Source: an uncultured Sphingomicrobium sp. (GTDB lineage Bacteria > Pseudomonadota > Alphaproteobacteria > Sphingomonadales > Sphingomonadaceae). From it: DNA of 64,000 nucleotides. The notes below the pieces were generated by a model. It worked only from the letters and a program-made list of their open reading frames with translations, ran no database searches and was not told where the DNA came from. Of this stretch, positions 2,977 through 64,000 are shown piece after piece. Each line of letters begins with the position of its first letter. Position 1 is the stretch's first letter. The stretch is from NCBI GenBank assembly GCA_964235815.1, contig CAXSCF010000001.1:26313-90312 (forward strand), given 5' to 3'. Made by a program: the position numbers and the translations under genes.

Positions 2977-3008
2977 CGTCGATCAGCGGTACGCCCGGAT
3001 GGCGCGCA

Positions 3009-9053: not shown

Positions 9054-10031
9054 TTACCCGTTCAATTTGCGATGCTCGCCCTTGACCCGGCGCACGGTCC
9101 CAGAACTCGCGCGCATGACGATGCTGTCGGTTTCGACTGTCCCGTCGCGGCGGCGCTTGACCCCGCCGAGCAGCGACCCGTCGGTGACGCCCGTGGCGGC
9201 GAAAATGCAATCGCCGCTGGCCATGTCCTCAAGCTTGTAGATGCGGTCGAGGTTCTCGATCCCCCAGCGCCGCGCGCGTCCGCGCTCGTCGTCGTTGCGG
9301 AACACCAGCCGGCCTTCGATCTGCCCCCCGACGCAGCGCAGGGCGGCGGCCGCGAGCACCCCTTCCGGCGCGCCGCCCGACCCGACATAAAGATCGATCC
9401 CGGTGTCGGGGTTGGTGGTCGCGATGACCCCGGCGACATCGCCATCGGGGATCAGCATGATGCCGCACCCGAGCGCGCGCAATTCGGCGATGATCGCGGC
9501 GTGGCGCGGGCGGTCGAGCACGCAGGCGATGATCTCGTCGGCGGCAACCCCCTTGGCCGCGGCGAGGCTGCGGACGTTGTCGGTCACCGAGCGCTCGAGC
9601 GAAATCACCCCGGCGGCATAACCCGGGCCGCACGCGATCTTGTCCATGTAGACGTCGGGGGCGTTGAGCAGCCCGCCCTGTTCGGCGATCGCCAGCACCG
9701 CGAGCGCATTGGCGCCGGCCTTGGCGGTGATCGTCGTTCCCTCGAGCGGATCGAGCGCGATATCGATGCGCGGCCCGCCATTGGGGGCGGATCCGACCTT
9801 TTCGCCGATATACAGCATCGGGGCTTCGTCGCGCTCGCCCTCGCCGATCACGACGGTGCCGTCCATCGGCAATTCGTTGAGCGCAGCGCGCATCGCCTCG
9901 ACCGCGGCGGCATCGGCGGCTTTCTCGTCCCCGCGCCCGACCAGATAGGATGCGGCAATCGCCGCCGCTTCGGTCACGCGAACCATTTCGAGGACGAGGA
10001 CGCGGTCGAGGACCGATGACGCAGTGACCAT
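9054..10031 (-). CDS. glpX: Class II fructose-1,6-bisphosphatase GlpX
   Basis: 325 aa, starting LEMVRVTEAAAIAASYLVGRGDEKAADAAAVEAMR..., a typical GlpX N-terminus and length. Confidence 0.9.
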   Translation of the reverse strand: MVTASSVLDRVLVLEMVRVTEAAAIAASYLVGRGDEKAADAAAVEAMRAALNELPMDGTVVIGEGERDEAPMLYIGEKVGSAPNGGPRIDIALDPLEGTTITAKAGANALAVLAIAEQGGLLNAPDVYMDKIACGPGYAAGVISLERSVTDNVRSLAAAKGVAADEIIACVLDRPRHAAIIAELRALGCGIMLIPDGDVAGVIATTNPDTGIDLYVGSGGAPEGVLAAAALRCVGGQIEGRLVFRNDDERGRARRWGIENLDRIYKLEDMASGDCIFAATGVTDGSLLGGVKRRRDGTVETDSIVMRASSGTVRRVKGEHRKLNG

Positions 10032-46970: not shown

Positions 46971-47882
46971 ATGAACGCTCCCCGGCCGATCGTACATCCT
47001 GACCGGAAACGCGCACGCATCGGCTTGTTGTGCGGATTGGCGGCTTATGCCGCGTGGGGGGTGCTGCCGATCTATTTCAAGGCGCTGGGCGATATCGCGC
47101 CGACGCTGATCGTGGCCCACCGAATCGTCTGGTCGCTGATCGCGCTCGCGGCGCTCGTCACGCTGGTCGGGGGTTGGCCCAGGGTGCGTAATGCAGCGCG
47201 ACGGCCGCGCCTGCTTGCCGCGCTGGCGCTGAGCGCGACGCTCGTTGCGATCAATTGGCTGTTTTATGTTTACGCCATCAATTCGGGACACATACTCGCC
47301 GGCAGCCTAAGTTATTATCTCAATCCCTTGGCCAATATCCTTCTCGGGCGCTTTTTCCTCGCCGAGCGCCTGTCGGCGCGACAGTGGACCGCGGTGGCGA
47401 TCGCCGCCGCCGGGGTGGCGGTGCTTGCGGTTGGGGCGCTCGACACGTTGTGGATCAGCCTCACCTTATGCTTCAGCTTCGCCACTTACGGGCTGATCCG
47501 CAAGCGACTGGCGGTCGATTCGATCAGCGGCCTGATGATCGAAACCGTGCTTCTGGCGCCGTTCGCCGCGGCCTATTTGTGGCTCGAGGCGCGCCACGGG
47601 GTGGCAATCTTCGGTCACGGGCGCGGCGATCTCGCGCTGCTGCTCGCCGTTGGCCTTATCTCGACGACGCCCTTGCTGTTGTTCACCGAGGCGGCGCGGC
47701 GCTTGCCTTATGCCACCGTTGGGATGCTCCAGTTCATCGCCCCGACGGTCCAGTTCCTGCTCGCGGTTTTGGCCTATGGGGAGCCGGTGACCCGCGCCCA
47801 TGCGGTCGCCTTTGCCGCGATCTGGGCCGCGGTTGCGCTCTATTCATCGGGCATGATCGCCCAGCGCCGCGTCAAAAGCTGA
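46971..47882 (+). CDS. rarD: EamA-family transporter RarD
   Basis: GLLCGLAAYAAWGVLPIYFKAL... and a 10-TM DMT pattern. The start is at the internal ATG. Confidence 0.8.
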   Translation: MNAPRPIVHPDRKRARIGLLCGLAAYAAWGVLPIYFKALGDIAPTLIVAHRIVWSLIALAALVTLVGGWPRVRNAARRPRLLAALALSATLVAINWLFYVYAINSGHILAGSLSYYLNPLANILLGRFFLAERLSARQWTAVAIAAAGVAVLAVGALDTLWISLTLCFSFATYGLIRKRLAVDSISGLMIETVLLAPFAAAYLWLEARHGVAIFGHGRGDLALLLAVGLISTTPLLLFTEAARRLPYATVGMLQFIAPTVQFLLAVLAYGEPVTRAHAVAFAAIWAAVALYSSGMIAQRRVKS

Positions 47883-49452
47883 GCGGCACCACTTCGCGCA
47901 CGCCCTCAAGTCGGCATAAGGACTTCACCACCGCAGGCGCGACCTCGCCATCGACCGCGACCAGCGCGACCGCTTCTCCTCCGGCCGCACGGCGCCCAAG
48001 GTTGAAAGTCGCGATGTTGATTCCTGCCTCGCCGAGCGCGGTGCCGAGCTTGCCGATGAACCCGGGGGCATCGGTGTTAACGAGGTAGATCATGCTCCCC
48101 TCAAGCTCGGCCTCGACCTCGACCCCGAAGATATCGACCAGCCGAGCGGCTTTGTTGCCGAACAAGGTTCCTGCGACGCAGCGCTCGCCCGCCTTCGTGC
48201 CGACCGTAACGCGCAGCAAGGTATGATAATCGCCTTCGCGGTCGTGACGGATTTCGGTCACGTTGAGTCCGCGTTCCCTGGCGAGGGTCGGCGCGTTAAC
48301 CATGTTGACGGTCTGCGAATAGGTTCCCATCAGCCCCGCCAGCACCGCCCCGGTGATCGGTTTCTGGTTGAGCTGCGCGGCCGCCCCCTCGACCTCGACC
48401 GCGATCGAGCGGACGTCTTCGCCGACGATCTGGCCGATCAGGCGCCCAAGCTTTTCGGCGAGCGCCATATAGGGCTTGAGCCGCGGCGCTTCTTCGGCGG
48501 TCAGGCTCGGCATATTGATGGCGTTCGTGACCCCGCCGAGCAACAGGAAGTCGCTCATCTGCTCGGCCACCTGGATCGCGACATTGACCTGCGCTTCGCT
48601 GGTCGACGCGCCGAGGTGAGGGGTCGAGATGAAGTTGGCCGTCCCGAACAAGGGCGACGCCGTGGCCGGTTCGCTCTCGAATACGTCCAGTGCCGCGCCC
48701 CCGACCTGTCCGCTGTCGAGCGCGTCCTTCAATGCCGCCTCGTCGATCAGCCCGCCGCGCGCGCAATTGATGATTCGCACCCCGGGCCTGGCCTTGGCCA
48801 GCGCCGCGCGGCTGAGGAGGCCGCGGGTCTGATCGGTCAGCGGGGTGTGGAGCGTGATGAAGTCGGCGCGGGCGAGCAACGAGTCGAAGTCAGCCTTTTC
48901 GACCCCCATCTCGATCGCGCGTTCCGGCGTCAGGAAGGGGTCGAACGCAACCACCTTCATCTTGAGGCCCAGCGCTCGCGCGGCCACGATCGAACCGATG
49001 TTGCCCGCCCCGATCAGGCCGAGTGTCTTGCCGGTCACCTCGACCCCCATGAAGCGGTTCTTTTCCCACTTGCCCGCCTGGGTCGAGGCGTCGGCCTCTG
49101 GCAATTGGCGCGCGAGCGCGAACATCAGGGCAATGGCATGTTCCGCGGTGGTAATCGAATTGCCGAACGGAGTGTTCATCACCACCACCCCACGTTGCAT
49201 CGCCGCGGCAAGATCGACGTTATCGACCCCGATCCCGGCGCGCCCGACGACCTTCAGCCGGGCGGCGCTCTCGAGCAATTTCGCCGTGACCTTGGTCGAG
49301 GATCGGATCGCGAGCCCGTCATAATCGCCGATCATCGCGGCAAGCTCGTCGAGGCTCTGGCCAGTGATCTCGTCGACCTCGATCCCGCGCTCGCGGAAAA
49401 TGGCTGCAGCGCGCGGGTCCATTGCGTCGGAAATCAGCACTTTCACGGTCAT
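47872..49452 (-). CDS. serA: D-3-phosphoglycerate dehydrogenase SerA (long form with ACT domain)
   Basis: MTVKVLISD..., GLIGAGNIGS NAD motif, 526 aa. ATGA overlap with the serC stop. Confidence 0.9.
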   Translation of the reverse strand: MTVKVLISDAMDPRAAAIFRERGIEVDEITGQSLDELAAMIGDYDGLAIRSSTKVTAKLLESAARLKVVGRAGIGVDNVDLAAAMQRGVVVMNTPFGNSITTAEHAIALMFALARQLPEADASTQAGKWEKNRFMGVEVTGKTLGLIGAGNIGSIVAARALGLKMKVVAFDPFLTPERAIEMGVEKADFDSLLARADFITLHTPLTDQTRGLLSRAALAKARPGVRIINCARGGLIDEAALKDALDSGQVGGAALDVFESEPATASPLFGTANFISTPHLGASTSEAQVNVAIQVAEQMSDFLLLGGVTNAINMPSLTAEEAPRLKPYMALAEKLGRLIGQIVGEDVRSIAVEVEGAAAQLNQKPITGAVLAGLMGTYSQTVNMVNAPTLARERGLNVTEIRHDREGDYHTLLRVTVGTKAGERCVAGTLFGNKAARLVDIFGVEVEAELEGSMIYLVNTDAPGFIGKLGTALGEAGINIATFNLGRRAAGGEAVALVAVDGEVAPAVVKSLCRLEGVREVVPLSF

Positions 49453-50591
49453 CTTGTCTGTTCCCACGCATAATCGAGCCAAGCGCCGAGCGCCTCGATG
49501 TCGGCCGTCTCGACCGTCGCCCCGCACCAGATGCGCAGGCCGGGCGGGGCGTCGCGATGACCGGTGATGTCATAAGCGACATCCTCATGCTCGAGCAGCC
49601 GCGCGATCGCCTTGATCCGCGCCTCGTCGGCGCCGTCGAGCGTCAGGCACACGCTGGTCGTCGAGCGCGTGGCAGGGTCGCGCGCGAGATGGCCCAGCCA
49701 CGGCCGCGCGACGACGATCCGGTCGAGCGCCGCGGCATTGGCCGCGCTGCGAGCGATCATCACCTCCAGCCCGCCCAGTCCAAGCGCCCATTCGAGCGCG
49801 AAGATGGCGTCCTCGACCGCCAGCATCGACGGCGTGTTGATCGTCTCGCCGGTAAAGATGCCTTCGCTCAGCTGGCCTTTCGACACCAGCCGGAACAGCT
49901 TGGGCAAGGGGCGGTCGGGGACGAAGCTCTCCAGCCGGTCGACCGCGCGCGGCCCCAGGATCAGCACCCCGTGGCCGCCTTCGCCGCCAAGCACTTTTTG
50001 CCAGCTGAACGTGGCGACGTCGATTTTCGGCCAGTCGATCGGATAAGCGAAGACCGCACTCGTCGCATCGGCCAAGCTCAGCCCCGCGCGACCCGCCGGA
50101 ATCCATTCGGCGTCGGGCACCCGGACACCCGACGTCGTGCCGTTCCAGGTGAACAGCACGTCGGTCGACCAATCAACCGCAGCCAGGTCGGGAAGCGCAC
50201 CATAATCGGCGCGTATCACGGTCGGGTCGAGCTTCAATTGCTTGACCGCGTCGGTCACCCAGCCTTCGCCGAAACTTTCCCACGCCAGCGTCGTCACCCC
50301 GCGCGCGCCGAGCATCGTCCACATCGCCATTTCGAACGCACCGGTGTCCGACCCGGGGACGATGCCGATGCGGTGCGTGTCGGGCAATTTCAGCAGCCGA
50401 CGCATGAGGCCGATGCAATGCTTGAGCCGCTGCTTGCCGAGCCCGCTGCGATGCGACCGGCCGAGCACCCGCAAATCGAGTTGTTCGGGGGTCCAGCTTG
50501 GCGGCTTGGCGCACGGGCCGGAAGAGAAATAGGGTCGCCTCGGGCGATTTTCGGGCTTGGCGCGGGGCGCCAGCGGCGGTGGCGTCGTCAT
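49449..50591 (-). CDS. serC: Phosphoserine aminotransferase (alphaproteobacterial SerC type)
   Basis: RPYFSSGPCAKPPSW... with AAGGAGAG before the internal ATG at 50591. Confidence 0.85.
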   Translation of the reverse strand: MTTPPPLAPRAKPENRPRRPYFSSGPCAKPPSWTPEQLDLRVLGRSHRSGLGKQRLKHCIGLMRRLLKLPDTHRIGIVPGSDTGAFEMAMWTMLGARGVTTLAWESFGEGWVTDAVKQLKLDPTVIRADYGALPDLAAVDWSTDVLFTWNGTTSGVRVPDAEWIPAGRAGLSLADATSAVFAYPIDWPKIDVATFSWQKVLGGEGGHGVLILGPRAVDRLESFVPDRPLPKLFRLVSKGQLSEGIFTGETINTPSMLAVEDAIFALEWALGLGGLEVMIARSAANAAALDRIVVARPWLGHLARDPATRSTTSVCLTLDGADEARIKAIARLLEHEDVAYDITGHRDAPPGLRIWCGATVETADIEALGAWLDYAWEQTR

Positions 50592-53345: not shown

Positions 53346-54488
53346 CTAAGCGAGCGCTTTCTCGTACACCCGATACCGATGATTGATCACCGCGCCGGGC
53401 AATTCGGCGATCGACATCATCCCCTGATTGTCCTCGAGCACCCACCCGAACTCGCCCTGTTTGACGCCATAATTCTCGACACACGCGCGGCGGATATATT
53501 CGATCAATGTGTAGGCGATCTGCCCCCCAAGCCGAGTCCCGTGAAGTCGCTTGGTTACCCCCATCAGCGGGACGCGCACCCGGCTCACCTTGGGCTTGCG
53601 CAGGCGCCACAGCAATTTGACGAACCCGAAAGGGAACAGCTCACCGTCCAGATCGCGGATCATCTCGTTGATGTCGGGGATGGTCAGCATGAAGCCAACC
53701 GGCTCGCCGTCGAGCTCGGCGATCCGCACCAGGTCTTCGAAGATGATCGGCTTCAACTTCTTGCCGGCATAAGCGATTTCGGCGTCGGTCAAGGGCACGA
53801 ATCCCCAATTGTCCGACCAGGCATCGTTGAGCAGATTGAGGATGATTCCCGAATCGCGCGCAAACTTCGCCTTGTCGACGGTACGAATGCGGATCCGCGG
53901 ATTGCGCTCGGTCGCGGCGACCATGCGATTGATCAGCTCGGGCTGGTCCTTGGCGATGTCGAGGTCGTAGGTGACGAGGTCCTTGGCCTTGGCATAGCCC
54001 GCCGCCTCGATCCACGCCCGATAGGCCGGGCGATGATGCCCCATCATCGCCGTCGGGGGCTGGTCGAAGCCCTCGATCAGCAGCCCCGGCTCGTCCCAGA
54101 TCGAGATCGAGATCGGCCCCATCGCGGTGCTCATCCGTTGGTCGCGAAGCCATCCCTCGGCGGCCGCGATTAGGGCGGCTGCGGCCTCGGCGTCGAGCGC
54201 TTCGAACAGGCCCCATTGGCCAAGGCCCGTTTGCATGTATTCCTGCACCAGCGAGTCGACCTGGGCGCTGATCCGGCCGACGATGCGCCCGTCGCGCTCG
54301 GCAACGAACAGCGCCGCGCGGCCATGGCCGAACCACGGGTTCTTCTTGGGGTCGATCAGCCCGTGGACCTCGTCCTTGAGCGGGGGAACCCACATCGGGT
54401 CGTCCTTGTATACGTGCCAGGCAAAGTCGACGAAGGCGCGGCGCTCGGCTTTGGTCGTGACGGGGCGGATCGTAAGGCTGCGGTTCAT
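53346..54488 (-). CDS. GNAT-like acyltransferase family protein (380 aa)
   Basis: LTIRPVTTKAERRAFVDFAWHVYKDDPMWVPPLKDEV...LFVAERDGRIVGRISAQVD, a family usually annotated as N-acetyltransferase. The function is unproven. Confidence 0.6.
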   Translation of the reverse strand: MNRSLTIRPVTTKAERRAFVDFAWHVYKDDPMWVPPLKDEVHGLIDPKKNPWFGHGRAALFVAERDGRIVGRISAQVDSLVQEYMQTGLGQWGLFEALDAEAAAALIAAAEGWLRDQRMSTAMGPISISIWDEPGLLIEGFDQPPTAMMGHHRPAYRAWIEAAGYAKAKDLVTYDLDIAKDQPELINRMVAATERNPRIRIRTVDKAKFARDSGIILNLLNDAWSDNWGFVPLTDAEIAYAGKKLKPIIFEDLVRIAELDGEPVGFMLTIPDINEMIRDLDGELFPFGFVKLLWRLRKPKVSRVRVPLMGVTKRLHGTRLGGQIAYTLIEYIRRACVENYGVKQGEFGWVLEDNQGMMSIAELPGAVINHRYRVYEKALA

Positions 54489-54510: not shown

Positions 54511-55701
54511 GTGGCTCTTGTCACGCGCCGCGCGGCGCTCCCAAGAGCGCCATCGTCATGCCACAGTCGCACGGCAATCGGCCATTTCGCACAAGAGGTT
54601 ACGATCATTTTCGAAACGTCGACCACGCCCGCCGCTCCAGCCCCGGACACGGCTCCTGCGCCGCTCAAGGCGCAGTGCAACGACAAGGCGATGCTGCGCG
54701 CCGCGGCGGACGTGACGCGCGACCTCAACGTGCCCTCGGCGCGGACTTACTGGACCGACTTCCTCGCCTCGGCGGCGGTGGGCTATGCCGCGCTGGCGCT
54801 GGCCGCGATGACCCCTAGCGGGCTAGTCATGATCGTTGCCGGGCTAGTCAGCATCGTCGGCCTGTTCCGCGCCGGCAGCTTCATCCACGAACTGACCCAC
54901 ATCAAGAAGGGCGAACTGCGGGGCTTCAAGCTCGGCTGGAACCTCATCGCCGGGGTGCCGTTGCTGATCCCATCGTTCCTCTATGAAGGGATCCACAACC
55001 TTCACCATGCCAAGATCCGCTACGGCACGGTCGAAGATCCCGAATATCTTCCGCTCGCGCTGATGAAGCCGTGGACGCTGCCGGTGTTCCTGGTCGCCGC
55101 GACGCTGGCCCCGCTCGCCTTGATGTTCCGCTTTGCCGTGCTCGCGCCGCTGTCGCTGCTCGTCCCGCGCCTGCGCACTTTGGTCGTCGAACGTTATTCG
55201 GGACTCCAGATCAACCCCCACTTCCGCCGCAAGCCGGCCGAGGGCGAGTTGGCCCGCCAGTGGCGCTGGCAGGAAGCCGCGGCGAGCGTGTGGGCCATCA
55301 CCTTGATCGCGCTGGTCGCGACGGGGCTTGTCTCGCTCCACGTTTTTGCCGTGTTCCTGGCGATCACCGCCGGCACGATGCTGCTCAACCAGACGCGCAC
55401 GCTGGTCGCGCATTTGTGGGAAAATGACGGCGAGCCGCTGAGCGTGACCGAACAGTTCCTCGACAGCGTCAACGTCCCGCCGCCCGGCCCGATGGCCGAG
55501 TTCTGGGCGCCGGTGGGCTTGCGCTATCACGCGCTGCACCACCTCCTGCCGGGATTGCCCTATCACGCGCTGCCGACCGCGCATCGCCGGATCAAGGCTG
55601 CGCTGGCGTCCGATTCGGCCTACCACGGGGCCAATTATGGTGGGTTGTTGCCGCTTGTCAGACGGCTGGCGGCAGCGTCGTGGCGCGGACGACCCGCCTG
55701 A
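54511..55701 (+). CDS. Membrane fatty acid desaturase family protein
   Basis: Three His boxes: HELTH, HNLHH, HALHH. The listed start is a GTG only 22 nt from the divergent GNAT start; the ATG at 54691 is a plausible true start. Confidence 0.75.
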   Translation: MALVTRRAALPRAPSSCHSRTAIGHFAQEVTIIFETSTTPAAPAPDTAPAPLKAQCNDKAMLRAAADVTRDLNVPSARTYWTDFLASAAVGYAALALAAMTPSGLVMIVAGLVSIVGLFRAGSFIHELTHIKKGELRGFKLGWNLIAGVPLLIPSFLYEGIHNLHHAKIRYGTVEDPEYLPLALMKPWTLPVFLVAATLAPLALMFRFAVLAPLSLLVPRLRTLVVERYSGLQINPHFRRKPAEGELARQWRWQEAAASVWAITLIALVATGLVSLHVFAVFLAITAGTMLLNQTRTLVAHLWENDGEPLSVTEQFLDSVNVPPPGPMAEFWAPVGLRYHALHHLLPGLPYHALPTAHRRIKAALASDSAYHGANYGGLLPLVRRLAAASWRGRPA

Positions 55702-55704
55702 AGC

Positions 55705-56802
55705 TCATTCTTCCGAGCGGACCAGCACCATCTCGCCGATGAACAAAAACAGCAGGAACGGCGCCCACGCCGCCAGCAGCGGCGGATAGGCCCCGACATT
55801 GCCCAGCGCCAGGCTCAGGCTATCGACCAGGAAATAGGTGAAGCCCAGCGCCATTCCGATCGCGGCGCGGATCAGCACCTGACCCGATCGCGCCAGCCCG
55901 AACGCGGCCAGGCCGGCGAGCAACGGCATCAGCGTGATCGACAGGGGGCCACTGATCTTGTGCCACCATCCGCTGCGCGCCGTCGCCGACGGACGCCCCG
56001 CGCGATCGAGGTCGGTAATCGCCTGTTCGAGCGAGTTGAAGTCCTGGCTTGTGGCGTTGATTTTGGCGAGCGTGAAGCGCGTCGCTTCAACGCCGTTCAG
56101 CGTGTCGAGGATCGGCTGCTTGCGCACGACATTCATCGCGGTGTCGTACGTCCGTGCGTTAAACAATCGCCAACCGCCCGGTCGCTGGCGGGCAAGGGGC
56201 GCATCGATCAATCCTTCAAGCGCTCCGCCGCTGCGCTGATAGATGGTCACTCCCTCCAACCGCACCTTCGCGCCGCGCCCGGCGACCAGCCGGACGTGGA
56301 CCAATTGCTCGCCGTCGCGCGCCCAGACATTACTGAGCACTCCACTGTCGGGCGGGATCGGCTTGTAATCGGCACCCGTCCAGGCGTCGGCCGTGCGCGA
56401 GGCGCGGACCACCACCGTTTCGTTGAAGGCAAAGGCGATCAAGGCCACGGCGATACTGGCGAGGATCATCGGCGCGAGTATCTGGTGCGCCGACAGTCCC
56501 GCCGCCTTCATCGCCACCACTTCGCTATTCTGATTGAGACTGGTGAGGGCGATCAGCGTGCCGAGCAGTATCGCGAACGGCAGAAAGCGCGATGCGAGCA
56601 TCGGAACGCGCAACCCGACATAGCGCCACAGCTCGGGTTCGCCATTGCCGGGGACGGCAAGAATCTTGCCCGATTCGCCCAGCAGGTCGAGCGCCATCAG
56701 CACCATCACGAGCATGATCAGCACGGCGAAGCTACGGCTCGCGAACAGCCGCGCCATGTAGATCGCGATCCGCCGCGAAGGGAGGAAGTTGAAACCGGTC
56801 AT
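55705..56802 (-). CDS. lptG: LPS export ABC transporter permease LptG
   Basis: YjgP/YjgQ permease pattern (LPSRRIAIYMARLF...). The internal ATG overlaps the lptF stop (ATGA). Confidence 0.8.
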   Translation of the reverse strand: MTGFNFLPSRRIAIYMARLFASRSFAVLIMLVMVLMALDLLGESGKILAVPGNGEPELWRYVGLRVPMLASRFLPFAILLGTLIALTSLNQNSEVVAMKAAGLSAHQILAPMILASIAVALIAFAFNETVVVRASRTADAWTGADYKPIPPDSGVLSNVWARDGEQLVHVRLVAGRGAKVRLEGVTIYQRSGGALEGLIDAPLARQRPGGWRLFNARTYDTAMNVVRKQPILDTLNGVEATRFTLAKINATSQDFNSLEQAITDLDRAGRPSATARSGWWHKISGPLSITLMPLLAGLAAFGLARSGQVLIRAAIGMALGFTYFLVDSLSLALGNVGAYPPLLAAWAPFLLFLFIGEMVLVRSEE

Positions 56803-58040
56803 GCCACGGTTGCGCCGCGCAGCCGGCGGCGTGGACGCAGCTTGCCGATCCACTTGCCAAGCGTGGCAAAGGCGGCCTCGAGCGCGCCGATCGGTTGACC
56901 GCCGGGACGGTGGGCGATGACGTGGTACATCCAGCCGATCAAAGCGACGAAGGCAAGAAACGGCAACCACAGCGCCAGTTCAGGGATCAGGCGCCCCTGC
57001 GCGCCCGCGCTTTCGGCATATTGATTGATCTTGTGATAGGTCACGACCATCACGATCGCGATGAAGATGCCGAGCCCCGACGACGATCGCTTGGGTGGCA
57101 CCGCGAGCGCGATGGCAAGCAATGGCAGCATCAACATCATCACCACTTCGACCAGCCGGTAATGGAGGTTGGCGCGCGCCTCGAGATTATCATGCACGCT
57201 GACCCTGGCTGCGGCGGCACCATAAGCGCGTGAGCTGATCTCCATCAGGTTCAACTCCTCGCGATCGCTGCCGCGGCCGCGAAACGGGTCGATCGAGGGC
57301 AAGTTGATCGGCATGTCGTAGCTGTCGAAGGCCAACGTGCGCGGGGTAGTAAATTTGGGGCTGTCCTGCACTAACCGGCCTTTCTTGAGCCGAAAGATGA
57401 TCGTGTCGGGATCGCCGGTCGACAGGAACTGACCGCTTTGCGCGCTCGCCGCGATGCGCATCCCGTTCGTGTCTTCGAGCGCGGTGAAGATGCCGCCGAG
57501 ACTGGTGCCCTTCTTTTCGCTGCGATCGATCCTCAGCGTCATGTGCTTGCCCATGGTGTTGAACTCGCCGACCTTGATCGCCGCGCCGAGCGCGCCCGAA
57601 CGCAGGTCGAACCGCAACCCTTCGTAGCGGTAGCGCGAATAGGGCTCGATCCAGCCGACGATTGCGATGTTGAGCAGCAGCAAGCCGACGGCGAAGGCGT
57701 AGGGCACGCGCAGCAAGCGACCATAACCGATCCCGATGCCGCGCAGCGCGTCGAGCTCGGACGACAGCGCGAGCTTGCGAAAGGCGAGCAGGATGCCAAG
57801 CAGCAGCCCGATCGGGATGCCCAACGCGAAATATTCGGGGAGCAGATTTGCGAGCATCCGCCAGACCACGCTGACCGGCCCGCCGGCATCGATCACGAAA
57901 TCGAACAGGCGCACGATCTTGTCGAGCACCAGCAGCATCGCCGCCAGCAGAAGCGTTCCTAGCAACGGAACGGTGATGCTTCGCGCCAAATATCGGTCGA
58001 TCAGGGCAAGCCGTCCCACGTTTCGTCGTCCCTGCACCAT
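56799..58040 (-). CDS. lptF: LPS export ABC transporter permease LptF
   Basis: LIDRYLARSITVPLLGTLLL... YjgP/YjgQ family. I use the internal ATG at 58040, and a later GTG start is possible. Confidence 0.8.
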   Translation of the reverse strand: MVQGRRNVGRLALIDRYLARSITVPLLGTLLLAAMLLVLDKIVRLFDFVIDAGGPVSVVWRMLANLLPEYFALGIPIGLLLGILLAFRKLALSSELDALRGIGIGYGRLLRVPYAFAVGLLLLNIAIVGWIEPYSRYRYEGLRFDLRSGALGAAIKVGEFNTMGKHMTLRIDRSEKKGTSLGGIFTALEDTNGMRIAASAQSGQFLSTGDPDTIIFRLKKGRLVQDSPKFTTPRTLAFDSYDMPINLPSIDPFRGRGSDREELNLMEISSRAYGAAAARVSVHDNLEARANLHYRLVEVVMMLMLPLLAIALAVPPKRSSSGLGIFIAIVMVVTYHKINQYAESAGAQGRLIPELALWLPFLAFVALIGWMYHVIAHRPGGQPIGALEAAFATLGKWIGKLRPRRRLRGATVA

Positions 58041-58129
58041 GATTTGGCCGCAAACGGGCCCGACATACACTGTGACGGCGACTCCCGCAGAATGGGGGGC
58101 GGAGACACCGGAACTTCGGCTGTAGCAGA

Positions 58130-58651
58130 ATGGACATGGATTTCATGCGCAAATCTCGCTCTCCCCTGGCTTTCGGGGCCACGCTCGTCGCGCTCGGCCT
58201 TGCCCAGCCCGCGGCTGCGGTCATCGTCGGCGCGGACGCGGCCGTCTGTGCCGCGGGCAAGCCGGCCCTGCTTGTCCGCGTCGCCGGGCTGCAGCGGCCG
58301 ACTGGCTCGCTCAAATTGTCGGTCTATGGCAATAATCCGTCGGTCTATCTCAAGAAGGAGGGGCGCCTGCGCCGGATCAAGGTGCCGGTCAGCAGCCGCG
58401 GCCCGATCGACGTTTGTATCGCAGTGCCCGGTGCGGGTCGCTACGCCGTCGCGGTCCATCACGACCTCAACGGCAATGGCGACAAGGATCGCCACGACGG
58501 TGGCGGCTATTCGAACAACCCGCGCGTTTCGTTGATGAACATGCGGCCTGCCTTTGCGCGGACGGCAGTGTCCGTCGGCCGTTCGCCGACCCGCACCGAA
58601 GTCCACTTGCTCTATGTCCACGGCCTGTCGGTGGGGCCTGCGCAAAGCTGA
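58130..58651 (+). CDS. DUF2141 domain secreted protein
   Basis: Signal peptide (MRKSRSPLAFGATLVALGLAQPAAA). The HHDLNGNGDKD motif is typical of DUF2141. Confidence 0.65.
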   Translation: MDMDFMRKSRSPLAFGATLVALGLAQPAAAVIVGADAAVCAAGKPALLVRVAGLQRPTGSLKLSVYGNNPSVYLKKEGRLRRIKVPVSSRGPIDVCIAVPGAGRYAVAVHHDLNGNGDKDRHDGGGYSNNPRVSLMNMRPAFARTAVSVGRSPTRTEVHLLYVHGLSVGPAQS

Positions 58652-59625
58652 TGAAGCGACCGAGGATCGCCTTGCTGTCGAACCCCAAGTCGACCGGAAA
58701 TATCGCCCAGCTGCCGCGGATTCGCGCCTTTTGCGCCGATCACATCGATATTTTCCATTATGAGGTCGAGCGCGCTAACCAGATCGGCGAAGCGATGGCG
58801 ACGATCGCCCGCGTCCAGCCCAAATTGCTGGTCATCAACGGCGGCGACGGCACTGTCCAGGCGGCGCTGACCGAGCTCTACAATGGCGGTCACTTCGGCG
58901 CCTCGCCGCCCCCCGTCGCGGTACTGCCAAGCGGCAAGACCAACCTCATCGCGCTTGATCTGGGCGCCGGGGGAGATCCGGTGGTGGCGCTTGGGCGACT
59001 GCTCGAACTCGCCCAGAGCGACCTTGCCCCGCACATTGTCCCGCGCGAACTGATCGCGCTGTCGGGCGGAATGGACGGGATCAAGCCGGTCATTGGCATG
59101 TTCCTCGGCGGAGCTGGCCTTGCCGACATCATGCTTTACTGCCGCAACCGAATTTACCCGCTCGGATTGCCCAATTCGATCAGCCATATCATTACCGCAA
59201 TCGCCGTCGTGCTGGGTCAGGTGTTTCGCATGCGCGCCAGCTTCCTTCCGCCCGAGCCGGCGCACCTCAGCGTCTCCTTGCGCCGGGAGGGAGCGATGCG
59301 AGGCCGTTTCTCGTTGCTGTTTGTCACGACCCTCGAAAAAGTCCTGCTGTCGAGTGACGTCGGCTCACACCACAGCGGCTCGCTCAAGTTCGTCGCGGTT
59401 GAGCAGCGGTCGGGGTCGTTGCTGCGCGCCTTTGGAGCAAGCCTTTTCGGACGCCTCGGCAAAACCAAGATGGCGGGCGTTCACGTCGAGGAAGCCGATG
59501 AAATCTCGATCGAGGGCGAAGGCAGCGACGTGATCCTCGACGGTGAAACGTTCCGCGCGGGTATCGGCAAGCCCATCCTGCTTCGCTCGGCGCTGCCACT
59601 GTCGTTCGTGCGCCTCGCCGCCTGA
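58651..59625 (+). CDS. Diacylglycerol-kinase-fold lipid kinase (YegS/BmrU-like)
   Basis: LLVINGGDGTVQ and LPSGKTNLIA catalytic-domain motifs. The start overlaps the DUF2141 stop (TGATG). Confidence 0.7.
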   Translation: MKRPRIALLSNPKSTGNIAQLPRIRAFCADHIDIFHYEVERANQIGEAMATIARVQPKLLVINGGDGTVQAALTELYNGGHFGASPPPVAVLPSGKTNLIALDLGAGGDPVVALGRLLELAQSDLAPHIVPRELIALSGGMDGIKPVIGMFLGGAGLADIMLYCRNRIYPLGLPNSISHIITAIAVVLGQVFRMRASFLPPEPAHLSVSLRREGAMRGRFSLLFVTTLEKVLLSSDVGSHHSGSLKFVAVEQRSGSLLRAFGASLFGRLGKTKMAGVHVEEADEISIEGEGSDVILDGETFRAGIGKPILLRSALPLSFVRLAA

Positions 59626-59627
59626 CG

Positions 59628-60488
59628 ATGACGACGATCGAGGCGCTCGTCGCCGATGAACTGGCACAACCGGTCGATCCACGCGTCGCGGCGATGGCCA
59701 GGGCGGTGGCGGCGCGGCACGGCGCGGCGAGCCGCGCGGTGCTGTTCTACGGATCCTGCCTGCGGGAACGGCAACTCGACGGGTTGATGCTCGATTTCTA
59801 TTTGATCGTGTCGGACTATCGCAGCGCCTATGACAAGCCGTGGCTGGCGCGCGCCAATGCGCTGATCCCGCCCAATGTCTTTCCTTTCGAGCACGCCGGT
59901 CTGGCTGCCAAATATGCCGTCCTCAGCGAAGCCGACTTTGCGCGCCTCAATCGGCCGGAAACGCGCAACGTGTCGGTGTGGGCGCGCTTCGCCCAGCCGT
60001 CGCGACTGGTGTGGGCCGCCGACGACAAGGCGCGCCATGCAACCGTGGCCTCGGTCGCGCGCGCCGCGCCGACCCTGCTCGCCGCGGCCGGGCGGATCGC
60101 GGGGGAAGCGCCGCTCGACTGGTGGCGGCGGGCCTTTTCGCTTACCTATTCGGCCGAGCTTCGCGCCGAACGCAAGACCCGCGCCGGATCGGTCGTCGAT
60201 CAGGACCGCGCCCGCTACGAACGCTTTTCGCAAGCTGCCATCGCCGCCATTTGCCCCACTGCCTCGAGCGGGGGTTGGGGGCGCCGGCGGATCGAGGGCA
60301 AATTGCTATCGGTTGTGCGTCTCGCCAAAGCCAGCGCGACCTACGCCGGGGGCGCCGAGTACATCGTGTGGAAGATCAATCGCCACGCCGGGACCGATTT
60401 CGTGCTTAAGCCGTGGCAGCGGCGCCATCCCTTGCTCGGCGCGCTCAGCCTGTTGCCGCGGCTCCTGAAATCGGGTGCGATCCGCTAG
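59628..60488 (+). CDS. Tam41/Mmp37-like nucleotidyltransferase-fold protein (tentative)
   Basis: VLFYGSCLRE..LDFYLIVSDY...NVFPFEHAGLAAKYAVLSEADFARL...WARFAQPSRLV is colinear with my memory of the Tam41 motifs (GYGSGV, DLILVV, YFNPF..IKYGVV, LYLAGRLQKPV). It starts 2 nt after the kinase stop. Confidence 0.45.
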   Translation: MTTIEALVADELAQPVDPRVAAMARAVAARHGAASRAVLFYGSCLRERQLDGLMLDFYLIVSDYRSAYDKPWLARANALIPPNVFPFEHAGLAAKYAVLSEADFARLNRPETRNVSVWARFAQPSRLVWAADDKARHATVASVARAAPTLLAAAGRIAGEAPLDWWRRAFSLTYSAELRAERKTRAGSVVDQDRARYERFSQAAIAAICPTASSGGWGRRRIEGKLLSVVRLAKASATYAGGAEYIVWKINRHAGTDFVLKPWQRRHPLLGALSLLPRLLKSGAIR

Positions 60489-62427
60489 ATCCGCGCGCCA
60501 AGGCCCCGGCCACCGAGGATGCCAGCGCGGCGACCGTGAAGGGCTTGCGGAGCAGTTCATGCCCGACCAGATCGTCGCTGTCGCCATCCCCGACGAAGCC
60601 GGTAACGAACAGGACCGCGATGTCGGGGCGCCGGGCCCGCAACTCCCGGATCAGCTCCGGTCCGGTCATTTCGGGCATGATCACGTCGGACACGACGAGC
60701 TCGAAATCGGCTGCGGCGAACAACCGCATCGCTTCCGCCCCGCTGGAGCAGCTGACCGGGTCATAGCCCAGATCCTCAAGCGCTCCGACGGTCGCGGTCC
60801 GCACGCGCGGATCATCCTCGACCAGCAGGATCCGCGCTCCGGGAACGGTGATGTCGGCTTCCTGGCGCTGCGCTGCAGGATGCAGGCGGACGTTGGTCGC
60901 GGCTTCGGCGGTGCGCGGCAGATAGATTGATACGGTCGTGCCCTTGCCCGGACGACTGTCGATCCCGACCTCGCCCCCTGACTGGTGCGCGAAGCCGAAG
61001 ATCTGGCTCAGCCCCAGCCCGGTGCCCTTGCCGACGGCCTTGGTGGTAAAGAAAGGCTCGAACGCGCGGTCGATAACTTCCCGACTCATTCCGCAACCGC
61101 TGTCGCTTACCGAAATGCGAAGATAATCGCCCGGCTGAATGTCCCCGACGGCGTTGGCGGTGACCGTCTCGTTGGCGGTCGAGATTGTCAATTCACCCTC
61201 GCCATCCATCGCGTCACGGCCATTGACCGCAAGGTTGAGAATGGCATTCTCGAGCTGGTGCATGTCAACGAATACCGGCCATGCGGCAGGGTCGAGCACG
61301 GTGCGCACTTCGACCCGCTCGCCCAGCGTTCGGTCGAGCAACTCGCTCATGCCGCCGACCAGTTGCGCGCTGTCGACGCATTCGGGAAGCAGGGGCTCGG
61401 ACCGCGCGAAGGACAGTAAGCGGCGGGTCAGCGCCGCGGCGCGCGTGGCGCCTTCCATCGCGTTGGTGAGGTGGATCATCACTTCGCTGCGCGGGCCGTT
61501 GAGCCGCCGCCGGGCGAGATCGATCCCGCCGACGACCACGGCCAGCATATTGTTGAAGTCGTGCGCGATGCCCCCGGTCAACTGGCCAACGGCTTCCATC
61601 TTCTGAACCTGGCGCAGCTGGGCTTCGGCGGCGTGGCGTTCGACCGCTTCGGCCTTTAGCGCAAGGTTGGCGTCGCTCAGTTCGCGGGTGCGATCGGCGA
61701 CCGCCTGCTCAAGCACCTGCGAGCGTTCGGCTTCGCTGTCCGCCTCGCGCCGCGCGATCGCGTTGAGGCGCAGGGCCTGGACCGCGACCGCGCCGAGAAA
61801 CACCGCCATCGCCCCGACGATCACCCCCAGCCAGCTTAGATAATCGCTCAATTTATCGGCGCGAGCGGCAAAGAAACGAGTCCGCTGCATTCGCTCGTTG
61901 AGAACCAGTCGCTCGCCTTCGGCAATATCGCTCAGGACACGCCGCACTGCGGGCCCGGTCGGCGACTGCGCCGCGGCGTAATAATAGCCCGTGCCTCCGG
62001 CGCCGCGCCCGGCGACCGTGGCTCGCGCGGCGAGCGCAAATTCTTCGCCACGCTGGCGATACAATTGTTGCAGTCGGATCAGCCGATCGCTTTGCGACGG
62101 CTCGTCGTGAAGCAATTTGCCCAGATCGAAGATTTGCTGCCCGGCTAGGCGCCACTGCGAATAATAGATGTTGCCACTGGTCTTGACCTGCTCGTCAAGC
62201 ACGAACCGCCCGAGCGCGGCTTCGGCCCGCGACACGCTGGCATCGAGCGAGCGGGTCAGCAAGGTCACTTCATAAGCGTGGCGCTCGCCATCGAGCGCTT
62301 CGTCGCGGGCATCGTTCGATGCCGCCACCAGGAACACCATGCCGAGCAAAATAAGCGCGGCAAGCAGCGCCCCGGCGGCCGCCCCGCCACCGCGCCAGTC
62401 AAAGCGCCGATCTTCCCCTGCGGTCAT
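60445..62427 (-). CDS. Hybrid sensor histidine kinase/response regulator with a CHASE3-like sensor region
   Basis: Two TM segments flank a ~170-aa sensor, followed by a coiled coil, the H-box GGIAHDFNNML, an HATPase domain (GTGLGLS) and a C-terminal receiver (ILLVEDD...). Confidence 0.85.
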   Translation of the reverse strand: MTAGEDRRFDWRGGGAAAGALLAALILLGMVFLVAASNDARDEALDGERHAYEVTLLTRSLDASVSRAEAALGRFVLDEQVKTSGNIYYSQWRLAGQQIFDLGKLLHDEPSQSDRLIRLQQLYRQRGEEFALAARATVAGRGAGGTGYYYAAAQSPTGPAVRRVLSDIAEGERLVLNERMQRTRFFAARADKLSDYLSWLGVIVGAMAVFLGAVAVQALRLNAIARREADSEAERSQVLEQAVADRTRELSDANLALKAEAVERHAAEAQLRQVQKMEAVGQLTGGIAHDFNNMLAVVVGGIDLARRRLNGPRSEVMIHLTNAMEGATRAAALTRRLLSFARSEPLLPECVDSAQLVGGMSELLDRTLGERVEVRTVLDPAAWPVFVDMHQLENAILNLAVNGRDAMDGEGELTISTANETVTANAVGDIQPGDYLRISVSDSGCGMSREVIDRAFEPFFTTKAVGKGTGLGLSQIFGFAHQSGGEVGIDSRPGKGTTVSIYLPRTAEAATNVRLHPAAQRQEADITVPGARILLVEDDPRVRTATVGALEDLGYDPVSCSSGAEAMRLFAAADFELVVSDVIMPEMTGPELIRELRARRPDIAVLFVTGFVGDGDSDDLVGHELLRKPFTVAALASSVAGALARGSSGSHPISGAAATG

Positions 62428-62445: not shown

Positions 62446-63708
62446 TCACCCGGCGAGCGAAACCCCGTTCGTCGAAGGGATGCAGCCGGTCGCGCGACCC
62501 GCCGCCTCGAACATCGTCAGAATCTGGCGGACCTGCTCGGCATCGTGCTCGGCACAGAGCGAGCAACGCAGCAGGGTCATGTTGCCCGGTGTCGCCGGCG
62601 GCCGCGCCAAGTTCACGTACAATCCCTCCTGAAGCAGCGCTTCCCACATCGCCGCCCCGGTCTCGAGGTCGGGCACGAGCACCGCGATGATCGCCGATTG
62701 CGGGGTCTCGGTGCCGAGCGTGAAGCCGAGCGCCTTCAGTCCGCGATGAAGCGTCTTGCTATTTTCCCACAGATGCGCGCGCTTGTCCGCGCCGTCCATC
62801 AGCTTGCGGATCGAGGTCGCCGCGGTCGCCACGACCGACGGCGGCAGCGAGGCGGTGAACACGTACGGCCGGCACACCAGCCGCAAAATCTCGAACTTGG
62901 GATGGTTCGAGACGCAGAAACCGCCGACCGTCCCGACCGACTTCGAAAAAGTGCCGATGATGAAGTCGACGTCGTCGATCACCCCCTGCGCCTCGGCCAC
63001 GCCGCGGCCATGCTCGCCGATGAAGCCCATCGAATGCGCCTCGTCGACCAGCACCATCGCCCCCGCCGCCTTGGCCACCGCGACCATTTCCTTCAACGGC
63101 GCGATGTCGCCGAGCATCGAATAGACTCCCTCGAGGATGACCAAAGTCTTGGCGCCTTCGGGAATGCGCTTGAGGCGCTTCTCGAGCGCGTCGATGTCAT
63201 TGTGGCGGAACGGCACGATATTGGCATTGCCGAGCGCGCAGCCGTCGTAGATCGAGGCGTGGCTGTCGATGTCGAGGACGATATAATCGTCCTTGCCGGC
63301 GATGGTCGAGATGATCCCGAGGTTGGCCTGATAGCCGGTCGAGAAGACCATCGCATGGTCCATGTCGTAGAACGTCTTGAGCGCTTCCTCGCACGCTTTG
63401 TGCCCGGCGTAGGTGCCATTGAGCACGCGGCTCCCCGTCGTTCCCGCGCCATAGTCGTCGAGCGCCTGCTTGCCCGCCGCGATGACCTCGGGGTCGAAGG
63501 TCATGCCCATGTAATTGTAGGTGCCGAGCAGGATCGTCCGCTGCCCGTTGCAGATCGCCACGGTCGGGCTTTCGACGCGCTCCATGACGAGGTTAAAGGG
63601 GTCGGTCAGCCCGGTCGATAGCAGGCTCTCGCGCTGCGCGATAAGGCCGTCGAACTTGGAGAAAAGATCCCCGCCCGCCACTTCGCCGGGGGCGCCGCCG
63701 TCGGTCAT
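62446..63708 (-). CDS. spt: Serine palmitoyltransferase
   Basis: 420 aa from the internal ATG. LLGTYNYMGMTFDP...FSTGY.ANLGIIST..GK..Y..LD.DSHASIYDGC...VLEGVYSMLGDIAPLKEMVAVAK..GAMVLVDEAHSMGF..GTFSKSVGTVGGF is nearly colinear with the Sphingomonas paucimobilis SPT as I remember it. Confidence 0.9.
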   Translation of the reverse strand: MTDGGAPGEVAGGDLFSKFDGLIAQRESLLSTGLTDPFNLVMERVESPTVAICNGQRTILLGTYNYMGMTFDPEVIAAGKQALDDYGAGTTGSRVLNGTYAGHKACEEALKTFYDMDHAMVFSTGYQANLGIISTIAGKDDYIVLDIDSHASIYDGCALGNANIVPFRHNDIDALEKRLKRIPEGAKTLVILEGVYSMLGDIAPLKEMVAVAKAAGAMVLVDEAHSMGFIGEHGRGVAEAQGVIDDVDFIIGTFSKSVGTVGGFCVSNHPKFEILRLVCRPYVFTASLPPSVVATAATSIRKLMDGADKRAHLWENSKTLHRGLKALGFTLGTETPQSAIIAVLVPDLETGAAMWEALLQEGLYVNLARPPATPGNMTLLRCSLCAEHDAEQVRQILTMFEAAGRATGCIPSTNGVSLAG

Positions 63709-63725
63709 GGCCAGTCCGGGGTCGG

Positions 63726-63968
63726 TCACGCCGTCATCTTCTCGACCGCGTCGACCAACTGTCCGACCGTCTCGATCTCGGCTTGCTGGTTCATGGTGAT
63801 CAGGATGTCGAACTCGTCCTCGATCGTGGCGACGAAATCGAGCACGGTCAGGCTGTCCCACTCAAGGTCCTGGGCAAAGCGCGTGTCGTCGCCGACGTCG
63901 ACGCCGTTCTTGTTGAACGGTTCGATGAGGGCTTTCACTCGGTCGTCGGTGGCGGCGCGTGTGGTCAT
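63726..63968 (-). CDS. Acyl carrier protein (sphingolipid-associated)
   Basis: 80 aa with the phosphopantetheine site LEWDSLTVLDF, ending 17 nt upstream of spt. The first ATG is at 63968; the listed ORF starts at a TTG at 63974. Confidence 0.8.
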   Translation of the reverse strand: MTTRAATDDRVKALIEPFNKNGVDVGDDTRFAQDLEWDSLTVLDFVATIEDEFDILITMNQQAEIETVGQLVDAVEKMTA

Positions 63969-64000
63969 CGGCAAGTCCTAATCTGGGGGCATCGCATAAG

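Follow-up and report, generated by a model that had tools for sequence, protein, structure and literature searches.

A probable cpgB–cpgC module with an accessory DUF2141 gene in the sphingolipid locus of an uncultured Sphingomicrobium

Introduction

Anionic phospho-sphingolipids allow Caulobacter to stay alive when it lacks lipid A and are also its polymyxin target. Sphingomonads lack lipopolysaccharide (LPS) altogether, so the lipids of their outer leaflet are of consequence for the biology of the envelope and for susceptibility to antibiotics. The closest described genes are those of the Caulobacter cpgABC locus, to which we compare three coupled open reading frames (ORF1-ORF3) at positions 58130-60488 of a 64 kb stretch of DNA from an uncultured Sphingomicrobium sp. 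(contig CAXSCF010000001.1), referred to here as the window (65.7% guanine-cytosine (GC)). We are fairly confident that this trio represents the sphingomonad cpgB–cpgC module, joined by an accessory gene that encodes a DUF2141 protein.

In Caulobacter, cpgA (CCNA_01217) encodes a PgsA-like cytidine diphosphate (CDP)-alcohol phosphatidyltransferase, and cpgC (CCNA_01219) encodes a protein with no conserved domain that is needed for the conversion of ceramide-1-phosphate to ceramide phosphoglycerate (CPG).(Zik et al. 2022) Deletion of cpgC keeps ceramide-1-phosphate and abolishes CPG, and a cpgA deletion mutant still makes CPG; by BLAST, CpgC homologues were found only in Caulobacterales and Sphingomonadales.(Zik et al. 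2022) CpgB is a ceramide kinase, its Mg2+-dependent activity having been proven with the purified protein, so far for the Caulobacter enzyme only.(Dhakephalkar et al. 2023, PMC10331486)

Two sphingomonad counterparts have been tabulated: Swit_3903/3902 of Sphingomonas (Rhizorhabdus) wittichii RW1 and ZMO1391/1390 of Zymomonas mobilis are listed as orthologues of CC_1160/CC_1161 (S2 Table), with Swit_3902 and CC_1161 sharing 39% identity (E 8e-44).(Olea-Ozuna et al. 2024) In the same work, Swit_3905/3906 are assigned as LptF2/G2, Swit_3908 as bCerS, Swit_3900 as spt and Swit_3899 as acyl carrier protein (ACP), and CPG synthesis is predicted for both species. An anionic phospho-sphingolipid pathway, which the first-pass annotation of the window had considered new for sphingomonads, was thus anticipated by published orthologues (Zik et al. 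2022; Olea-Ozuna et al. 2024), and with the cpgB–cpgC pair already predicted in Sphingomonadales, the locus alone adds little. A recent preprint reports that LptF2/G2 are required for anionic sphingolipid export in Caulobacter, places the S. wittichii LptF2/G2 homologues in a sphingolipid region, and acknowledges the periplasmic steps as a gap.(10.64898/2026.04.12.717747)

Results

Organization and conservation of the gene trio

ORF1 (58130-58651; 173 amino acids (aa)), ORF2 (58651-59625; 324 aa), and ORF3 (59628-60488; 286 aa) lie on the plus strand, encoding a DUF2141 protein, a putative ceramide kinase of CpgB type, and a CpgC-type protein with a Tam41-like fold, respectively. The coupling that the first-pass annotation had read from the letters is confirmed: the ORF1 stop codon (TGA, 58649-58651) and the ORF2 start codon (ATG, 58651-58653) have one A in common, forming a TGATG overlap, and the ORF2 stop codon (59623-59625) is separated by a 2-nt gap (CG) from the ORF3 ATG at 59628. 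GC content at the third codon position is 0.78-0.81 in the three frames, similar to other genes of the window and typical of real genes. A promoter and terminator scan of 57900-60700 yielded nothing above expectation.

Conservation of the arrangement was assessed in the best 80 loci of an ORF3-family search of genome contigs, all of which belong to Sphingomonadales. An ORF2-like gene is positioned directly upstream of the ORF3-like gene in 74/80 loci, with gaps mostly of -4 to +13 nt; adjacency this frequent and this tight indicates that the arrangement is not due to chance, and it bears out the earlier proposal of a kinase and a Tam41-like enzyme forming a coupled pair in a sphingolipid locus. 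LptF-like and LptG-like genes are found upstream in 71/80 and 68/80 loci, respectively, spt is found downstream of the ORF3-like gene in 64/80, and a hybrid kinase gene lies between these two in 61/80. In nearly every genome sampled, the pair sits within spt/ACP/bCerS/LptF2G2 loci. The pair is also adjacent in four further chromosomal loci (L086-L089) and in plasmid records of Roseomonas, Pseudomonas, and Qipengyuania, and on a Diaphorobacter plasmid the kinase gene is located ~2 kb downstream of the CpgC-like gene.

Five Sphingobium loci (L071, L075, L076, L079, and L080) display a CpgC-like gene with a histidine kinase gene, spt, and ACP downstream, and no cpgB-like, LptF/G-like, or DUF2141 gene within 8 kb upstream. 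Their lipid kinase must accordingly be encoded elsewhere or be missing.

ORF2, a putative ceramide kinase

ORF2 possesses a diacylglycerol kinase (DAGK) catalytic domain (PF00781, E 1.6e-13) with a GGDGT motif at residues 64-68, invariant in the family alignment, and a C-terminal DGE motif, in agreement with its initial description as a GGDGT lipid kinase. Only two cysteines are present (C28 and C164), and the CxxxCxxC motif of eukaryotic ceramide kinases is absent. With the NCBIfam equivalogs for lipid kinases, ORF2 reaches 15-24 bits where the cut-offs are 274-400, the YegS, DgkB, and MamU models being matched very weakly, and the nearest PDB relatives are DgkB (E 1e-3) and YegS (0.015), the comparison with YegS having been proposed beforehand and giving a weak match. 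ORF2 thus stands apart from the YegS, DgkB, and eukaryotic CERK clades.

The Dongia soli cluster L081 was used as a proxy for the Caulobacter-type cluster. It reproduces the published CC_1152-CC_1165 order, with two nucleotidyltransferases, a gene at the bCerS position, LptF/G, HIT, metallophosphoesterase, CDP-alcohol phosphatidyltransferase, DAGK, and CpgC-like genes followed by Spt, ACP, epimerase, and adenosine monophosphate (AMP)-ligase genes. Its kinase at the cpgB position and ORF2 align over 151 aa with 36% identity (E 2e-22). Homology, gene position, and published orthologue tables together point to ORF2 as a putative ceramide kinase of CpgB type. The route through ceramide-1-phosphate that was proposed at the outset also appears right, as judged by CpgB/CpgC homology, gene position, and published function.

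ORF3, a CpgC-type protein with a Tam41-like fold

The ORF3 family comprises 1205 representatives at 50% clustering (E <= 1e-3), the closest named genome being that of Sphingomonas edaphi (78%), which places the window in Sphingomonadaceae. Proteins identical to ORF1 (P0407) and ORF3 (P0001) are both encoded on a single public contig of 94,208 bp. Aligned from end to end (298 columns), ORF3 shares 46% identity (E 3e-75) with the gene at the cpgC position in Dongia soli (L081:10001-10924), and it shares 40% with P0334. A profile search with the sphingomonad clade excluded gave named matches only in Dongia, Rhodospirillales, and Marinimicrococcus; look-ups of ten family cluster representatives returned no Caulobacter names, and the published forward primer for cpgB, when used to scan metagenomes, returned nothing.

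The AlphaFold2 model of ORF3, built from an alignment of 74 diverse family members, has a predicted local distance difference test (pLDDT) score of 94.7 and adopts a two-domain fold, a nucleotidyltransferase (NTase) domain followed by a helical domain. In a Foldseek search against the PDB, the five best matches are all Tam41 chains (E 4.9e-7 to 2.2e-5, probability 1.00), with template modelling (TM) scores of 0.49-0.53 over 236-283 columns, led by 6ig4_A (E 4.9e-7, TM 0.51/0.53) and 7ecd (E 6.7e-7); the next folds, aminoglycoside nucleotidyltransferases, reach a TM score of ~0.3. At the sequence level, PF09139 is weakly matched by 7/74 family members (best 4.5e-5), and phmmer and profile searches against PDB sequences did not reach Tam41 from ORF3. 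The fold search and these seven weak Pfam matches are the sole connections between ORF3 and Tam41. The resemblance to Tam41 that the first-pass annotation had pointed out therefore stands at the level of fold and not at that of Pfam family membership. UniRef labels some Dongia homologues as 'phosphatidate cytidylyltransferase', and an InterPro Tam41 signature has been noted on CC_1161/CpgC homologues.(Olea-Ozuna et al. 2024)

Of the NTase pattern hG[GS]...Dh[DE]h, the family retains the hG[GS] motif as Y41-G42-S43, followed by D56-F-Y58, in which D56 is the sole invariant acid and a nearly invariant Tyr58 occupies the position of the second NTase carboxylate. R120, E177, R179, K234, and K249 are invariant. 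According to its published description, Tam41 has just one NTase acid left of three and relies on basic residues to bind cytidine triphosphate (CTP); compared with that description, the D56 plus R120/R179/K234/K249 pattern fits.

CpgC-like genes are often coupled to CDP-alcohol phosphatidyltransferase genes (L081, L085, and L087). Such a gene lies upstream of the kinase gene in Dongia, L087, and Roseomonas, and directly upstream of the CpgC-like gene on the Diaphorobacter plasmid. Three non-sphingomonad clusters carry two of them, at 2480-3712 and 7783-9018 in L081, 2221-3426 and 6864-8042 in L087, and 1791-2999 and 6754-7887 in L085, compared with one in the published description of the Caulobacter cluster; the second could be the missing enzyme that uses the CpgC product.

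CPG-type genes for head groups and transport are also carried by IncP plasmids, namely Diaphorobacter sp. JS3051 pDCB2 (L085) and Pseudomonas sp. JS425 pPNP1 (L083). Their sets comprise CDP-alcohol phosphatidyltransferase, CpgC-like, DAGK, LptF/G, metallophosphoesterase, and nucleotidyltransferase genes, with HIT on pDCB2 only, and no spt is found in the displayed stretches of either plasmid. pDCB2 is typed as conjugative, and its CPG-type genes adjoin mercury and arsenic resistance genes, which suggests that the CPG pathway is horizontally mobile.

ORF1 and the distribution of DUF2141

ORF1 matches PF09912 at 63.6 bits (E 1.9e-17; gathering cut-off 24.4), covering model positions 1-110 of 112. 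Its N-terminus resembles a signal peptide, with a hydrophobicity peak at residues 15-33 and pLDDT < 50 for residues 1-28, so that the protein is predicted to be secreted or periplasmic, as was first noticed; a database copy, P0407, begins 5 codons later, at 58145. In an alignment of 37 homologues, two cysteines are invariant and the motif HHDLNxNGxxDxxxDGGGYSNNP is conserved. The AlphaFold2 model (pLDDT 84) is a β-sandwich with a disordered N-terminus. No PDB entry matches it below E 9e-3, the best matches, all at E 9e-3 or worse, being fimbrial/adhesin, pilotin, CBM20, and metal-binding domains. An LptA/LptC-like β-jellyroll lipid bridge was considered and rejected, as the model is a generic β-sandwich. 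Assignment as CpgA was likewise rejected, because CpgA is a CDP-alcohol phosphatidyltransferase and ORF1 a DUF2141 protein.

A DUF2141 gene is located between LptF and the kinase gene, coupled and on the same strand, in 42/80 Sphingomonadales loci, with a DUF2141-kinase gap of -1 to +17 nt wherever it is present. Gaps such as -972, which would suggest a fusion of DUF2141 with the kinase, are artefacts of ORF extension; in L043, for instance, the genes are separate, with a 6-nt gap. Outside this arrangement, L088 keeps the DUF2141-kinase-CpgC order, though its CpgC is just 40% identical to ORF3; the Qipengyuania chromid locus carries a convergent DUF2141 gene downstream (33% identity) with no spt nearby; and the complete Roseomonas cluster carries one between the HIT and metallophosphoesterase genes (32% identity). 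The recurrence of an uncharacterised DUF2141 protein beside cpgB-cpgC in several bacterial lineages is newly flagged here, having gone unreported before, and DUF2141 is unmentioned in the sphingolipid literature searched for that term.

In many Sphingomonadales, a separate DUF2141 paralogue adjoins crtG, the gene for carotenoid 2,2'-hydroxylase.(PMC5989583, PMC9241875) Within this order, DUF2141 is thus tied to two different hydrophobic-molecule pathways (crtG and cpgB/cpgC).

Neighbouring genes in the window

The trio is embedded in a gene order of bCerS-like, desaturase, LptG2, and LptF2 genes, then DUF2141, cpgB, and cpgC, then hybrid kinase, spt, and ACP genes. The bCerS-position protein (53346-54488, minus strand; 380 aa) has a weak PF00583 (GNAT) match, corresponds in position to Swit_3908 (CC_1154), and is present in 40/80 loci. 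A gene of the fatty-acid desaturase/hydroxylase family (54511-55701, plus strand; PF00487, E 3.8e-27; 39/80 loci) encodes a protein that probably modifies ceramide, as a hydroxylase or desaturase; FA_hydroxylase or sterol-desaturase-family genes occupy comparable places in L082 and L086-L088. The LptG2-type permease (55705-56970, minus strand; PF03739, E 2.5e-63; TIGR04408, 266 bits) and LptF2-type permease (56799-58070, minus strand; PF03739, E 5e-59; TIGR04407, 233.7 bits) are divergent from the trio and form part of a putative sphingolipid exporter.

Downstream, the hybrid sensor histidine kinase gene (60445-62427, minus strand) is convergent with ORF3 and overlaps its 3' end by 44 nt, encoding HATPase_c, Response_reg, and HisKA domains and a weak CHASE3 match. 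It is followed by the serine palmitoyltransferase gene spt (62446-63861, minus strand; NF047603, 790.5 bits versus a cut-off of 670) and, upstream of spt, by the gene of a dedicated AcpR-type ACP (63726-63974, minus strand; PF00550, E 2.2e-9), which corresponds in position to Swit_3899/CC_1163. The trio had been placed beside spt; the distance from ORF3 is 2 kb, with the hybrid kinase gene lying in between. The hybrid kinase is ~43-51% identical in Sphingopyxis and Sphingobium, is absent from Dongia-type, Roseomonas, and other clusters, and is unmentioned in the literature consulted for the sphingolipid locus; sphingolipid synthesis may be under its control as a regulator specific to this lineage.

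The listed lptG2, lptF2, and spt ORFs are too long at their 5' ends, with model matches beginning at residues 71, 26, and 64, respectively. The lptG2 start is likely near 56802, so that lptG2 would begin immediately past the lptF2 stop; when spt, too, is read from its likely start, its apparent overlap with the ACP gene mostly vanishes.

Neither cpgA nor a HIT or metallophosphoesterase gene is present among the window genes scanned. A D-3-phosphoglycerate dehydrogenase gene of serA type, which supplies serine for Spt, is located 4 kb from the sphingolipid locus (47872-49527, minus strand), and a gene for GlpX fructose-1,6-bisphosphatase (FBPase) farther off (9054-10031, minus strand). A Caulobacter FBPase mutant (CC_1385) has been reported as cofit with cpgC and cpgD mutants. 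The presence of both genes in the window is probably coincidental housekeeping.

Discussion

Proposed pathway

In the pathway proposed for this locus, the cytoplasmic CpgB-type ORF2 would convert ceramide and adenosine triphosphate (ATP) to ceramide-1-phosphate, which ORF3 would activate with CTP, yielding CDP-ceramide and releasing pyrophosphate. From a gene beyond the window, a CDP-alcohol phosphotransferase, either CpgA-like or a housekeeping PgsA-like enzyme, could then add a glycerate- or glycerol-type head group. Export of the anionic lipid would be carried out by LptB2-F2G2, as Caulobacter genetics suggests, and ORF1 would be exported to the periplasm as a facultative accessory. The middle step is the tentative one: that ORF3 makes CDP-ceramide from ceramide-1-phosphate and CTP is suggested by its fold, its conserved residues, and the frequent coupling of CpgC-like genes to CDP-alcohol phosphatidyltransferase genes, natural partners for a CDP-lipid synthase, yet the assignment is perhaps a little more apt to fail than to hold. 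To our knowledge, CDP-ceramide has not been described in any organism.

Several points weigh against this pathway and against a dedicated role of DUF2141 in it. ORF3 has no Pfam (E up to 0.01) or NCBIfam match of its own, PF09139 is missed by ORF3 and by 10/10 further relatives, and a TM score of ~0.5 to Tam41 suggests only a moderate likeness. The putative orthology of ORF2 and ORF3 to CCNA_01218/01219 rests on synteny, the Dongia proxy, and published tables. Among the ~35 other window genes scanned, none carries PF01066 (CDP-alcohol phosphatidyltransferase) and none encodes a CpgD-like cytidylyltransferase, so that the final head group is not readable from the window; and since cpgA deletion keeps CPG, a CDP-ceramide route needs another transferase. 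DUF2141 is absent from 38/80 Sphingomonadales loci, including the close relatives L003, L004, and L006, and from the Dongia, L086, L087, L089, Pseudomonas pPNP1, and Diaphorobacter pDCB2 clusters. Missing from these loci and from most non-sphingomonad clusters sampled, it cannot be essential. Finally, a 2025 pathway scheme still labels the CpgC mechanism 'unidentified', and the published working model has CpgC adding glycerate.(Zik et al. 2022)

Alternative explanations

In that working model, applied to the window, ORF3 would transfer a glycerate- or phosphoglycerate-derived group directly onto ceramide-1-phosphate, its NTase fold being repurposed (Zik et al. 2022). The accumulation of ceramide-1-phosphate without CPG upon cpgC deletion, together with the persistence of CPG upon cpgA deletion, makes one enzyme the simplest genetic reading; the replacement of the second NTase carboxylate by the nearly invariant Tyr58 favours it as well, and the 2025 scheme leaves the mechanism unnamed. 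Against it, the nearest solved structures are those of CTP-dependent phosphatidate cytidylyltransferases, the combination of a single Asp with basic residues is as described for Tam41, and CpgC-like genes are frequently coupled to CDP-alcohol phosphatidyltransferase genes. We also know of no NTase-fold enzyme that joins a hydroxy acid to a phosphomonoester as an ester unless a nucleotide provides the activation, and on balance direct transfer seems possible but rather unlikely.

The DUF2141 gene might, in turn, be a passenger that is functionally unrelated to the kinase and CpgC, the TGATG overlap reflecting compact operon packing. Its absence from the loci and clusters listed above agrees with this, as do the paralogue beside crtG and the generic nature of the β-sandwich. 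Set against these are the conserved tight spacing to the kinase gene (-1 to +17 nt) and the occurrence of DUF2141 beside cpgB/cpgC in four different arrangements (Sphingomonadaceae, L088, Qipengyuania, and Roseomonas); when a neighbour is kept despite rearrangements, this usually signals that the genes are functionally linked, and a mere passenger is the more doubtful explanation.

A glycerolipid route, in which ORF2 would act as a diacylglycerol kinase forming phosphatidate and ORF3 as a Tam41-type enzyme forming CDP-diacylglycerol by a second route, is highly improbable: CpgB does phosphorylate diacylglycerol and ceramide about equally well in vitro, CDP-diacylglycerol is indeed made by Tam41 enzymes, one of them bacterial, and some Dongia homologues bear the phosphatidate cytidylyltransferase name in UniRef, but cpgB deletion in Caulobacter abolishes ceramide-1-phosphate and leaves phosphatidate unchanged, cpgC deletion abolishes CPG, the pair resides within spt/ACP/bCerS/LptF2G2 loci in nearly every genome sampled, and in the published phylogeny cpgB is almost confined to genera with sphingolipids or with the genes for them.

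Significance

The reading of the locus as a cpgB–cpgC module leaves DUF2141 as a facultative accessory, neither a core enzyme nor CpgA. The most economical guess for ORF1 is that it handles or modifies the anionic sphingolipid in the periplasm; the family could provide a chaperone or hand-over factor for anionic sphingolipids exported by LptF2G2, or could modify head groups in a metal-dependent manner. As a speculative combination, we put forward that the CpgC family consists of CTP:ceramide-1-phosphate cytidylyltransferases and that DUF2141 is, at the same time, a dedicated periplasmic component of the pathway; this combination would more probably fail in one of its halves than hold in both.

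The Tam41-fold model of ORF3 nevertheless offers concrete, testable chemistry for CpgC, and the recurrent companionship with cpgB-cpgC provides a first pathway context for DUF2141, a family of unknown function. If the CpgC assignment is true, the routes to the head groups of bacterial phospho-sphingolipids would branch at CDP-ceramide, as those of glycerolipids do at CDP-diacylglycerol; if the DUF2141 role is true, it would supply part of what is missing on the passage of sphingolipids across the periplasm.

Comparison with known systems

The Tam41/Mmp37 enzymes (Schizosaccharomyces pombe 6IG2/6IG4; Firmicutes 7ECD) are the best structural match of ORF3, with ~270-283 aligned columns, sharing the NTase and helical domains and apparently also the single Asp and the basic residues. 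They differ in sequence, with 12-16% identity and ORF3 falling below the PF09139 threshold, and in the expected substrate, predicted to be ceramide-1-phosphate for ORF3 and phosphatidate for Tam41.

ORF3 shares with Caulobacter CpgC (CCNA_01219/CC_1161) a gene position after the kinase gene and before spt, a length of ~290-310 aa, a remote Tam41 signature, and the fact that neither has its own Pfam domain, and differs in the hybrid histidine kinase gene inserted between ORF3 and spt. ORF2 and CpgB (CCNA_01218/CC_1160) both display a DAGK/LCB5-type domain with GGDG and no CxxxCxxC, and both are encoded directly upstream of a cpgC-type gene in a sphingolipid locus, a position also held by the published sphingomonad orthologues Swit_3903 and ZMO1391. 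Published identities between the Caulobacter and sphingomonad kinases are, however, just 25-29%, and the upstream neighbour is DUF2141 for ORF2 and cpgA in Caulobacter.

The likeness to cpgABC raised by the first-pass annotation therefore extends to three coupled same-strand genes near spt, of which the second and third are the kinase and CpgC; it ends at the first gene, which encodes CpgA in Caulobacter and a secreted DUF2141 protein here. In the comparison with S. wittichii RW1, ten window genes fit the published numbering Swit_3899-3908 one for one, the unlisted Swit_3904, 3907, and 3901 falling, by their numbering, at the DUF2141, desaturase, and hybrid kinase positions. In Z. mobilis (ZMO1390-1394), the unlisted ZMO1392 falls, again by its numbering, at the DUF2141 position. 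The published analysis of these two species is silent on the intervening genes, the same DUF2141, kinase, and desaturase positions that the window fills.

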